Under the pieces are notes generated by a model. That model was given only the letters and a program-made list of their open reading frames with translations, ran no database searches and was not told where the DNA came from. From Schmidtea polychroa (Eukaryota): a stretch of 64,000 nucleotides of DNA. The DNA lies in NCBI GenBank assembly GCA_044892525.1, contig CM097885.1, forward strand, positions 8,372,001 through 8,436,000, read 5' to 3'. This document shows, piece by piece, positions 8,168-41,058 of the stretch (position 1 is its first letter; every line of letters starts with the position of its first letter). The position numbers and the translations under genes were made by a program.

Positions 8168-8244
8168 AGTAGTAGGATGTGGGCTCCCCAGACCAGGTCC
8201 CCTCCAGATCACATATACCCCCCCCCCGGGAAAAAATTTTATTT

Positions 8245-9120
8245 TTTTTTTAGAACGATGCCTAATATTTTTAGAACTATTACGTAATCAATGCCTAATA
8301 TTTTTAGAACGATGCCTAATATTTTTAGAACTATTACGTAATCAATGCCTAATATTTTTAGAACGATGCCTAATATTTTTAGAACTATTATGTAATTTTT
8401 TTTTAAATTAATTGGTCCAGCGGTGACCTACTTTTTTTCTTCCCAAAAGTAATGTTCCCGCCAACAAATTTTATTGAACGATACCTCATCTTAAAGCTCA
8501 GTCCAAGACCTTTCGAATGAGCTATAGGTATCTTATATATCTTTAATAGTTTTAATGTTATTAACAATTGATGACCACCATCTTTTCAACGTTAAATTAT
8601 TATTATTTTTCAAAATATTATTAAGTGATCCAGCGGGGACCTACTTTTTTTCATCCCAAAAATTATTGTTCCCGCCAACATATTATATTGATCGATAGCT
8701 TATTTTAAAGCTCTGTGCAAGAACTTTCTAATGAGATATAGATTTTTATCATACGATGACTCATCACATTTTTAGAACAAAGACAATGACTCATCACATT
8801 TTTAGAATGATGTCTAATATTTTAGAATGATGCCAAATATTTTTAGATTGATTACGTCATAATTTTAGAACGATGCCACATATTTTTAGAACGATGCCTA
8901 ATATTTTTAGAATGATTACGTCATATTTTTAGAACGATGCCTAATATTTTTAGAACTATTACGTAATCGATGTCTAATATTTTTAGAACGATGCCAAATA
9001 TTTTTAGAACGATGCCTAATATTTTTAGAATGATTACGTCATACTTTTAGAACGATGCCTAATATTTTTAGAATGATTACGTCATACTTTTAGAACGATG
9101 CCTAATATTTTTAGAACTAA
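8245..9120 (+). repeat. Subterminal 21-22 bp tandem arrays (tttttagaacgatgcctaata / tttttagaacgattacgtcata)
   Basis: Also at ~11130-12150 and ~13775-14795, and inverted at ~30250-31325 and ~40150-40965. These generate the spurious FLERCLI ORFs. Confidence 0.9.
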
Positions 9121-9339
9121 TAATTTTGTTTTAATTATCGATTATATAATAATTTAATTTTGTTTAAATCGTTGATTATATAATTTGTTTAAATCATTGA
9201 TTATATAATTTTTTGTTTTAATTATCGAATACGTAATAATATAATTTGTTTAAATCGTTGATTACATATTATTATTTTTTAATTTTCAATATTTTCTTTT
9301 AAAATATTAACGCCCATGTGGAAGATGTTATTTTCAAAA

Positions 9340-36600: not shown

Positions 36601-39600
36601 TTAAATTAAGGATATATTAAATTTACAATACATAATATTATAATATTATAATATTATATAAAATTATATAAAATTATACTATATATTAATGTTTATATTA
36701 ATGTTTATATTAATGTTTAAATATGTTTAAATAACTAAATTAAATTATTTAAATTTAATTTATTTAAATATACTTTTGATATAACTTTATTTCTTTCGTT
36801 TTAGTATCCATAAAGTAAGTAAATAAAGAATTTACTACAATATTTTAATTATTTTACTTAGTAATGAAGAAAATGAATTATATGATTATGAAGAAGATGA
36901 ACCAGACAAAATGGTGAAACACTAAATGACTTATGTTCTGGATTTAGAAATTTCTTATTAAAACATGAATTATAGAAGAAAATGAACCAGACAAAATGGT
37001 GAAACACTAAAGGAGTTATAGTTCCGGATTTCTTAAATGAATTAGCTGATTGTGGGTGTCCTTCAACATGAATTATCAGACTTAAATTATGTAAACTTTC
37101 AACGATTGTCAAGAAAAATGGGAAAAACCGATGTTTTAGCAATTAGATATTGTAAAGTACTACCTGAAGAATATTATTATTAATGTAAGACATGAATTAA
37201 TTCTTTAAAATATATATATTATATTTAGGTATCTGTGTTTTATGGTGGGAAATGACATTGAAAAAGTATACCACAAATAACAGTTGCCTAATTTATCAAT
37301 CCTGTGACGATAAAATGCTAGATAATGTAAGTTAATTGCTTTTAAATCAATATAAATTTTAGCAATGATAGTTGACACCGCATCAGAAACTAAGAAATAC
37401 GTCCAATTTGCAAGATGTATTCCATGAAATCACTATCAAATGGCCCGATAGAGATGATAATTTTGAGATAGAATACCAGCAGAAGAGCGAGAAAAATTTG
37501 TAAATTAAATATAATAGGGTTGGGTGGGTCCTCTTTATCCCTTAATTAATATATATTTACAAGCTGATCGTCGTGGTGGGCGGTTGTAATCCAACTAGTG
37601 GGAGGCCTCTGTAAATATATATTTGTGTTAGTGAAAACATTAATTAATTTGGTTATAGTGCCAATGACGCATGTATTTTGAAATTATACGTTTCGAATGT
37701 GCTGGTAGTTGACTACCCATGCTAGGCGTAATGTTCCGTACGGAAAGCTATAATGCCCAGGTTCTTCTGACCCCACTTGGGGGAGGCACAGACGACCCTT
37801 GTGGACGCGAACAAATATCCACCGTGTCTTTCAGGCACAGATATTTGGTCACTGCTCATTAGGCCTGGCAATACTAAATGCATACACTTTGCCTTGTCCT
37901 CTCTTGTCTTGATTTTTATCGTTTAAATAGTGTGTGTGATAGGTTTTATTTACTAACCATAATTAATATACCCTTGCGATATGTTGAGTGTGAGTAGTAC
38001 CTTTGTGAGCAATACCCATAGGGGGACAGAATATTTTGTCGGATAGACTAGGAGTATATACACCCATGTTAAACAAGGTATGTGTATATAGAATGTGTGT
38101 GTAAAATTATCGCTCCTTATTGACAACTTCCTGTAAAGGCAAACACAGAATACTGCAAACATAATAATACTCTACCCCATAACTTAGTATGTAAAAATTA
38201 TTTAAGGTTTTTTCACTAATAATAATAATAATTATAATAATAATAATAATAAAGTTTAATGGGTTGTGTGTGTGTGGAAAAAAATATTTGAGGTTTTCAC
38301 GAATATTGATAATAATAATGGTTAATGAGTGTTTTTATGTTTTTGACTAATATTTGCAATAATAATAATGGTTAATGGGTTGTGTGTGTAAAAATATTTT
38401 ATGTTTTTGACTAATATTTGCAATAATAATAATAATAATAATAATAATAATAATAATAAAGTTTAATGGGTCGTGTAAAAAATATTTTAGGTTTTTCACT
38501 AATATTTGCGTTAATAATAATAAAGTTTAATGGGTTGTGTGTGTAAACCATATTTTAGATTTTTCGTTAACAATAATAATAATAATAATAATAATAATAA
38601 TAAAGTTTAATGGGTTGTGTGTGTGTGGAAAAAAATATATATTTTAGGTTTTCACTAATATTCATAATAATAATGGTTAATGAGTGTTTTTATGTTTTTG
38701 ACTAATATTTGTAATAATAATAATAATGGTTAATGGGTTGTGTGTGTGTAAAAATATTTTATGTTTTTGACTAATATTTGCAATAATAATAATAATAATA
38801 ATAATAATAATAATAATAATAATAATAATAAAGTTTAATGGGTCGTGTAAAAAATATTTTAGGTTTTTCACTAATATTTGCGTTAATAATAATAAAGTTT
38901 AATGGGTTGTGTGTGTAAACCATATTTTAGATTTTTCGTTAACAATAATAATAATAATAATAATAATAATAATAATAATAATAATAATAATAATAATAAT
39001 AATAATAATAATAATAATAATAATAATAATAATAACTCCCGCGCGTGTTAATACTTTAAAAGAAAATATTGAAAATTTAAAAAATAATAATATTTATGCA
39101 AAGCATGTGCAATAATTATGTCTTTGTTAATTAAGTAAACTTTAGTGTCAAAATAAGTTTTTAAAATATTTTTAAATTTAAAATACCGCAACTTAATATA
39201 TTTTTGTTCTACCCCTTCATTGATTTAAGTTGGTCAGAATTTAATAATAATTATATTATACCCTTTGAAACATGTTGAATGTGAGTAGTACACCTTTGAC
39301 CATTACCCATATGAGCAATACCCATAGAGGGATAGAATATTTTGTCGGATAGATTAAGAGCATATATGATAATAATATTCCCCGTGCGCGTAATAATAAA
39401 TAATAATAATAATAATAATAATAATAATAATAATAATAATAATAATAATAATAATAATACTTTGAACTTGTATTTGAAATAATAATAATAATAATTTACG
39501 ACATATTGAGTGTGAGCAGTACCCTTGTGACTTGTTGAATGTGAGTAGTACCTTTGTGACCATTACCCTTAGGGGGACAGAATATCTTGTCGGATAGACT

Positions 39601-41058
39601 AGGAGTATATATAATAATAATCATAATAATAATATTAATAATAATAATAATATTGATTAAAACTTTGAAAATAATTCTTTGAAAATAATACTTTGAACAA
39701 TATTTGATGTAAAAGTTCCTGAAATAATCATGAAAATGTTGAAAATCGTGAAAATATTGAAAATGTAGAAAATTATGAAAATATTGATAATTATTAAAAA
39801 ATGCAAATGATGAAAATGTTGAAAATCATGAAATTGATGTAGAAATTAAGTTTTATGAATAATTGCAAATAATAATAATAATAATAATAATAATAATAAT
39901 AATAATAATAATAATAATAATAATAATAATTTTGAAAATAACATCTTCCACATGGGCGTTAATATTTTAAAAGAAAATATTGAAAATTAAAAAATAATAA
40001 TATGTAATCAACGATGTAAACAAATTATATTATTACGTATTCGATAATTAAAACAAAAAATTATATAATCAATGATTTAAACAAATTATATAATCAACGA
40101 TTTAAACAAAATTAAATTATTATATAATCGATAATTAAAACAAAATTATTAGTTCTAAAAATATTAGGCATCGTTCTAAAAGTATGACGTAATCATTCTA
40201 AAAATATTAGGCGTCGTTCTAAAAGTATGACGTAATCATTCTAAAAGTATTAGGCATCGTTCTAAAAATATTTGGCATCGTTCTAAAAATATTAGACATC
40301 GATTACGTAATAGTTCTAAAAATATTAGGCATCGTTCTAAAAATATGACGTAATCATTCTAAAAATATTAGGCATCGTTCTAAAAATATGTGGCATCGTT
40401 CTAAAATTATGACGTAATCAATCTAAAAATATTTGGCATCATTCTAAAATATTAGACATCATTCTAAAAATGTGATGAGTCATTGTCTTTGTTCTAAAAA
40501 TGTGATGAGTCATCGTATGATAAAAATCTATATCTCATTAGAAAGTTCTTGCACAGAGCTTTAAAATAAGCTATCGATCAATATAATATGTTGGCGGGAA
40601 CAATAATTTTTGGGATGAAAAAAAGTAGGTCCCCGCTGGATCACTTAATAATATTTTGAAAAATAATAATAATTTAACGTTGAAAAGATGGTGGTCATCA
40701 ATTGTTAATAACATTAAAACTATTAAAGATATATAAGATACCTATAGCTCATTCGAAAGGTCTTGGACTGAGCTTTAAGATGAGGTATCGTTCAATAAAA
40801 TTTGTTGGCGGGAACATTACTTTTGGGAAGAAAAAAAGTAGGTCACCGCTGGACCAATTAATTTAAAAAAAATTACGTAATAGTTCTAAAAATATTAGGC
40901 ATCGTTCTAAAAATATTAGGCATTGATTACGTAATAGTTCTAAAAATATTAGGCATCGTTCTAAAAAAAAAAAATAAAATTTTTTCCCGGGGGGGGAGGG
41001 GGTATATGTGATCTGGAGGGGACCTGGTCTGGGGAGCCCACATCCTACTACTAACAAT

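Follow-up and report, generated by a model that had tools for sequence, protein, structure and literature searches.

Two nested palindromes and what they encode

The stretch of DNA analysed here (the window) comprises 64,000 nt of the 781-Mb genome of Schmidtea polychroa (contig CM097885.1, positions 8,372,001 to 8,436,000; 28.6% G+C) and holds two large palindromic elements, A and B, with ends of the Polinton (Maverick) type. Self-comparison of the window placed left ends at 8168, 11043 and 13684, and right ends at 31405 and 41052. A preliminary description, made from the sequence alone, had proposed AGTAGT...ACTACT ends and a separate 6-bp target site duplication (TSD) for each element, and the end sequences and the duplications AACAAT (A) and TAGAGT (B) bear this out. 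It had set the two elements side by side, with B starting at 13681; B in fact starts at 13684 and is nested within the left arm of A.

With the nested material inside it, A extends from 8168 to 41052 between two copies of AACAAT (8162..8167 and 41053..41058, + strand), beginning with AGTAGT at 8168 and closing with ACTACT at 41052. Its outer left arm (8168..11042, +) starts with the end AGTAGTAGG, carries a terminal repeat shared with a helper Polinton described below, as well as 21-bp and TAT repeats, and terminates in the first copy of B's target, TAGAGT. The inner left arm (31412..34800, +) leads to the centre, a 5-nt loop TCTAC (34801..34805) located at a short inverted repeat already present in the standard arm, and the 6.25-kb right arm (34806..41052, −) follows without interruption. 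Net of nested inserts, A measures 12,516 bp, with arms of 6255 and 6256 bp that differ by 15 substitutions (0.24%).

B (13684-31405), flanked by its own TSD TAGAGT (left copy 13678-13683; right copy 31406..31411, +), consists of an 8.16-kb left arm (13684..21842, +), a 683-bp spacer (21843..22525) of type I of the family's two spacer types, and a right arm (22526..31405, −) that mirrors the left one, including a 1.85-kb block present there in two versions that are 79% identical (18157-19874 and 20035-21760). Its undisrupted target site can be read on the other arm of A, at about 38162-38190. Net of nested inserts B is 17,003 bp long, its arms of 8159 and 8161 bp differing by 28 substitutions (0.35%). 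The arm lengths given earlier (about 6.25 and 8.1 kb) thus agree with those measured, and chance is excluded because kilobase arms are 99% identical. The wording 'fully palindromic' suits A, with its 5-nt loop, but neither B nor the typical copy of the family, which has a spacer of 0.67-0.70 kb.

The earlier account had overlooked the third left end at 11043, the chimera behind it and an insert in B. The tandem chimera (11043..13683, +; 2,641 bp) joins B's left end to a copy of A's arm: its start matches the start of B, and A's arm is 97% identical to its final 1.47 kb. It is best read as a probable product of unequal crossing-over between related arms after insertion. The insert, 711 bp long and of hAT type (26958..27668), is present only in B's right arm, has an 8-bp TSD TTATAATA and encodes a hAT dimerisation domain (E 2.8e-9).

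Neither A nor B contains genes or remnants of pPolB or of a retroviral-type integrase, nor genes for capsid, protease or packaging ATPase, in keeping with the original statement that integrase, capsid, ATPase and intact polymerase are missing. A Pfam scan of the six frames of B 15900-22526, with stops read through, returned no family at E 0.1, and when the open reading frames of eight Polinton loci and of the helper were compared with the arms, matches were confined to the terminal repeats. In the arms, the longest open reading frames are translated simple repeats. Nothing in the helper corresponds to about 5 kb of each arm; what the two share is the terminal repeat and a 90-bp motif, of which the helper has two subterminal copies and full family copies have 7-11. 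Each arm also carries a fragment of the 5′ head of signal recognition particle (SRP, 7SL) RNA: the one at 16479..16517 (−) is 82% identical over 39 nt to the host gene, and the others lie at 28570-28608 (+), 31973-32011 (−) and 37569-37607 (+). These fragments score under the Rfam gathering threshold. The host SRP RNA genes form a tandem array with a 593-bp period at C2:31.93-31.98 Mb, and they mark the genome as that of an animal.

The helper Polinton and the palindrome family

An autonomous Polinton with the same ends was sought and found. This helper (E21) is 16,125 bp long, has the TSD AATCTT and 1.3-kb terminal repeats, and carries a full gene set with open frames for pPolB, an adenoviral protease, an integrase, an A32-type ATPase and TBP. 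Its pPolB (1,388 aa) is 55% identical over 847 aa to the Pfam-positive pPolB of the window, Pfam itself having made no pPolB call on the 1,388-aa frame; the protease and the ATPase were called by Pfam. The TBP homologue (159 aa; L040:3631-4107, +; Pfam E 2.8e-15, PDB matches to 1.7e-16) is encoded head to head with the ATPase. By its features, a 427-aa protein is a candidate major capsid protein: its nearest Atlas clusters (0.97, by features) include double-jelly-roll families, at 15% and 65% of members, with a recognition value below the reliable mark. No minor capsid protein was identified among the helper's frames. The helper's first 75 nt are near-identical to those of A and B, and its terminal repeats are 83-89% identical to theirs over 1.1-1.3 kb. 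A marker from its pPolB has 274 matches in the genome; a count of 311 for the ATPase came from an imperfect pattern and was set aside. First-look pPolB candidates in the genome number 8,816 (91 of them scored), a very heavy Polinton load.

The shared ends and the lack of genes suggest that A, B and their relatives are mobilized in trans by the helper's enzymes. Of the earlier proposal of a trans-mobilized snap-back family, the multi-copy family, the 6-bp TSDs, the Polinton ends and the autonomous Polinton with the same ends are supported, but simple folding back of the helper does not account for the elements. The same comparison bears on whether they might instead be a Foldback-like family moved by an unrelated cut-and-paste transposase, with Polinton ends that are incidental. 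Arms made of tandem sub-repeats, as in Foldback elements, and an interior for which no Polinton source was found would suit such a family; the terminal identity to the helper does not, nor do three TSD-flanked chimeras of 15.5-16.9 kb (L025-026, L031-032 and L094-095), which share one common junction and join a family arm to the capsid/integrase/ATPase half of the helper, with no polymerase. This explanation is largely refuted, and we give it very little credence.

The genome contains 118 exact copies of a 27-nt terminal motif, and the first 100 listed gave 21 apparent end pairs 1-17 kb apart, one of which (E11) was removed from the counts, both of its motifs being on one strand and hence not inverted. 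The 20 remaining loci comprise 15 family palindromes, one 7.1-kb deleted form, two elements of helper type and two chimeras. An exact 6-bp TSD flanks 18 of them, including E15, whose TSD is self-complementary and so uninformative; at E16 the TSD matches at 5 of 6 positions, and at E10 it sits 3.1 kb further out. Ten loci picked by their spacer (among the first 100 of 249 matches), 11.7-15.0 kb long, all have both ends and a 6-bp TSD. The terminal-motif search with paired ends and the spacer search thus establish a multi-copy family with 6-bp TSDs, found at 28 of 30 other loci, where left and right flanks are unrelated. The 23 copies measured together span 11,655-14,992 bp (median 13,836). Two loci considered as family ancestors (E14 and E17) were rejected: they hold 388 of the 695 bp of the type I spacer at 98.5% and are therefore derived from a type I palindrome.

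Markers for the two spacer types, which are 76% alike, have 249 and 227 matches, and at least one locus carries both. The arm marker has 1,976 matches, the first 100 of which include 28 facing pairs within 13 kb (56 matches) versus 4 in the other orientation. Some 500 copies in the family therefore bear a spacer, and the total may reach about 1,000 once centre-deleted and partial ones are counted; in whole-palindrome form the family has reached hundreds of sites, with 6-bp TSDs of Polinton type. The same form recurs with distinct TSDs across the family, whereas the spacer-less form of A is a singleton, its loop junction occurring once genome-wide. The preliminary description took the TSDs to mean that A and B were each integrated as a unit, but a TSD alone is no proof that the palindromic form moved.

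The TSDs also bear on the possibility of an assembly artefact, produced by fold-back chimeric reads or collapsed repeats, which we regard as highly improbable. Direct 6-bp TSDs between unrelated flanks at 28 loci would not be expected of it, nor would the substitutions and indels between arms, the one-arm inserts with their own TSDs, the asymmetric tract common to two loci (below) or the conserved non-palindromic spacers. In its favour, A's junction is single-copy, a near-perfect inversion of flanking DNA beside one helper copy (G3, below) could be artefactual, and the reads gave only short contigs, none across the junction of arm, centre and arm. Contigs from four read sets covered 30, 30, 30 and 27 of 30 bins over 31420-34835; none crosses the whole stretch, and none of the matches listed has a joint at A's centre. 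They contain arm sequence in other data sets and are too short to bear on the inversion. Among the 24 sequencing runs listed, none is on record as RNA, and a second organism has a share of 0.27.

How the palindromes may be copied

The two arms of an element differ by a median of 0.13%, versus 3.45% between elements, and the partner arm is the nearest in 19 of 24 elements, as also seen in a tree of 35 arm segments. Differences between arms are unevenly distributed: most kilobases have 0-2, and isolated tracts have 11-65, some of which, close to repeats, may be alignment noise. Two copies 181 Mb apart in different targets, E2 and E10, have 48 arm-to-arm asymmetric sites in common. The second arm of E2 differs from the first arm of E10 at 1 of 948 sites and from its second arm at 67 of 912, and a 600-bp heterologous tract is retained in both copies. 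Because these asymmetric sites are shared, an arm difference was passed through transposition; each arm would thus have served as the template for its own copy, as expected of strand displacement that runs from end to end, and homogenization would be frequent, not obligatory. E2 and E10 contradict a mechanism in which one arm must be rebuilt from the other at each round. Tracts that match other copies, together with arms that differ by about 3% while the spacers are only 76% alike, point to exchange between copies.

Palindrome formation is a habit of Polintons in this genome. One 10.3-kb palindrome (G5; TSD CACCAA) consists of the integrase/ATPase half of the helper family, and another of 12.1 kb (H2; TSD GAGACT, with ends and centre read) of its polymerase half; the left end of a further one (H1) lies outside the stretch read. 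Five inverted pPolB pairs, among the 91 scored matches, are palindromes of two other Polinton families, with arms of 3.7-7.7 kb that are 98.6-99.8% identical and a 6-bp TSD in four of the five. Palindrome centres lie at short natural hairpins in A and P3, and in P1, P2 and G1 at nested mini-elements with terminal repeats (1.1-1.7 kb, with ends of the A/B family type). P1 and P2 have an identical mini-element junction despite different outer ends, and G1 has its pPolB palindrome inside a family copy. The window also contains the left portion of a Polinton from a different family (43608-47830; end AGTAGTATG; 870-aa pPolB frame at 44621-47233); it is 93% identical to an arm of the pPolB palindrome P1, and a second arm was not found in the window.

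Elements of the A/B family carry the helper's terminal repeat at both ends and encode nothing. We consider it likely that they are trans-mobilized, palindromic defective genomes of the snap-back type, that is, non-autonomous satellites of the co-resident Polinton. The helper's protein-primed polymerase would replicate the excised, linear element over its full length by strand displacement, and the displaced palindromic strand would fold back, restoring a double-stranded origin and being favoured as a template; the helper's integrase would then insert the replication products. An extrachromosomal or hairpin form of the family's DNA would be expected on this model. Arm differences would be inherited, each arm having its own template, while strands would now and then be exchanged, either inside a folded strand or among copies replicating together, evening the arms in patches and swapping arm tracts between subfamilies. 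Template switching at internal inverted repeats would start new palindromes, either at a short natural hairpin (A, P3) or at a nested mini-element (P1, P2, G1). B would have inserted into A later, on the chromosome, with the tandem chimera and the hAT insert arising afterwards.

Palindromes could, alternatively, be both made and kept alike on the chromosome, by repair synthesis that starts from one terminal repeat and copies inward or outward from the other end. Polinton integrase and polymerase would still move the palindromes, and neither a replication advantage nor a hairpin intermediate would be needed. Such repair synthesis has been proposed for Foldback-type elements. We think it rather unlikely as the main route, yet several observations lean towards it or weigh against the satellite reading. 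One helper copy (G3; C2:77.64-77.68 Mb; L096-L098, L102, L103) has a 7.3-kb inverted duplication that extends beyond the element through at least 5.2 kb of flanking DNA (99.5-99.95% identity) and lacks a TSD; it is either a chromosomal rearrangement or an assembly error. Inverted copies of flanking DNA also occur at E10 (2,567 bp) and E15 (518 bp), both inside other Polintons. Inverted copying thus takes place on or next to integrated elements as well. The possibility that E10 and E15 were inserted into the tip of another palindrome was ruled out, the inversions being local. Arm differences fall in tracts, and the centres of A, H1 and H2 differ among themselves; that of A equals what deletion of the centre at a microhomology would leave, and could be the result of such an event at the present site. 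Five of the 24 elements have an arm at least as similar to that of another element as to its own partner. The co-inheritance result comes from one pair of copies, and no source of the 5-kb arm interior was found in the Polinton loci examined, Pfam or Rfam (SRP head aside).

Against copying confined to the chromosome, later inserts are restricted to one arm (B in A, the hAT insert in B and the pPolB palindrome in G1), and the 600-bp heterologous tract survived in two separate copies. Hundreds of copies with the same two spacers and different TSDs indicate that the palindrome was amplified as such. The flank inversions at E10 and E15 may themselves have formed outside the chromosome, given their position inside other Polintons. 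The chromosomal and episomal routes can coexist.

Known systems, packaging and neighbouring features

Their ends, TSDs and helper make A and B non-autonomous Polinton derivatives; by gene content they are not Polintons. Polinton ends are (AGT)n or (AG)n, including (AGT)2...(ACT)2, with TSDs of 6 bp (5-8) according to PMC8097293, and 10.1101/2023.08.22.554363 gives a length of 13-25 kb with terminal inverted repeats of 100-1500 bp. Like the Polintons (Mavericks, polintoviruses, adintoviruses) described there, the family has such termini, 6-bp TSDs and a total length within 13-25 kb; unlike them, A and B lack genes, their arms reach 6.26 and 8.16 kb, and their interior is no deletion derivative of the helper. 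Their termini are homologous to those of a co-resident autonomous Polinton, as expected of non-autonomous ones.

As defined in PMC13506859, snap-back defective viral genomes depend on a helper, as A and B probably do, and resemble them in being near whole-length palindromes that bear the helper's ends. The A/B family differs in being DNA that is integrated, inherited and present in hundreds of germline copies, and in having arms of mostly foreign non-coding sequence. Sequence derived from one helper end, which marks a snap-back genome, is seen in G5 and H2 but not in A or B. Palindromic protein-primed products are also known from delta-Ad.IR adenovirus vectors (deleted between inverted repeats), phi29 palindromic terminal-protein DNAs and pGKL1 hairpin plasmids, in which a template switch at an internal inverted repeat yields a palindrome that lacks genes and has one and the same end on both sides. 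These, unlike A and B, are laboratory or cytoplasmic products that do not integrate with a TSD. Foldback-type elements (FB, Galileo, Tetris) share with A and B long inverted arms of internal sub-repeats, and Galileo is assigned to the P superfamily (PMC3688188, PMC4079207). The ends and TSD of A and B are instead of Polinton type and their arms several kilobases long; rather than cut-and-paste ends and a TSD of their own, they match the helper.

The string 'palindrom' occurs 0 times in the main texts of PMC8097293, 10.1101/2023.08.22.554363 and PMC8502044. A full-text literature search, with Repbase and the founding Polinton paper outside its scope, returned palindromic Polintons in no title or opening of an abstract. 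Repbase lists non-autonomous Polintons, and an earlier description there is possible.

Relative to the helper's 16.1 kb, the 23 family copies measure 72-93%, A 78% and B 105%. No symmetric TSD-flanked copy above 17 kb was seen among the copies read. The five size outliers read were two 28.3-kb pairs, one of 23.6 kb without a TSD, and elements of 9.3 and 10.3 kb (a 32.4-kb pair and several 10-kb pairs lie outside this set). The 28.3-kb pairs were discarded as a larger size class, both being nested elements, and a strict lower limit is contradicted by TSD-flanked copies of 7.1, 7.4, 9.3 and 10.3 kb, for which in-place shortening is possible. Adenovirus has a packaging window of about 75-105% of genome length. 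By analogy, the retention of 14 kb of non-coding DNA would fit such a window, and would equally fit plain descent from one master; capsid packaging of the family is possible. One tentative and rather doubtful extension is that the family represents a germline-fixed, defective-interfering polintovirus satellite, its 5-kb interior a stuffer for the capsid's size window and its 90-bp motif an amplified cis signal, within a complementing multi-component system that includes polymerase-only palindromes and capsid/integrase-only chimeras. If true, the packaged satellite would preserve, in fossil form, traces of how an animal Polinton replicates by strand displacement and is packaged into virions.

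According to PMC8097293, particles of animal Polintons were unobserved as of 2021, and their replication and virion formation in animals were inferred from gene content. Hundreds of young palindromic derivatives provide direct sequence evidence on the mode of copying, recording arms that are co-inherited and exchanged in patches, and new palindromes that start from internal inverted repeats. In native tissue, their snap-back DNA, with its defined length, would be an abundant and easily detected target. With several megabases of DNA in near-perfect palindromes of 12-15 kb, the genome also has a likely source of rearrangements, and gene-based Polinton searches miss gene-less palindromes.

Around these elements, A interrupts a long terminal repeat (LTR) retrotransposon (7433-8167 and 41053-43638, −), with an integrase core on its left and a protease-like frame on its right; a check of the empty site of A through this flanking frame gave no continuous frame. 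Two 1.35-kb copies at 3113-4465 and 49708-51067, 91.6% identical, each contain an open TFIIB-repeat frame (E 4e-39 and 6e-38). Another LTR retrotransposon (53841-58987, +), with gag and a Monjiviricetes-type fusion glycoprotein in two frames, lies between direct repeats of 0.87 kb (52500-53373 and 59779-60645).

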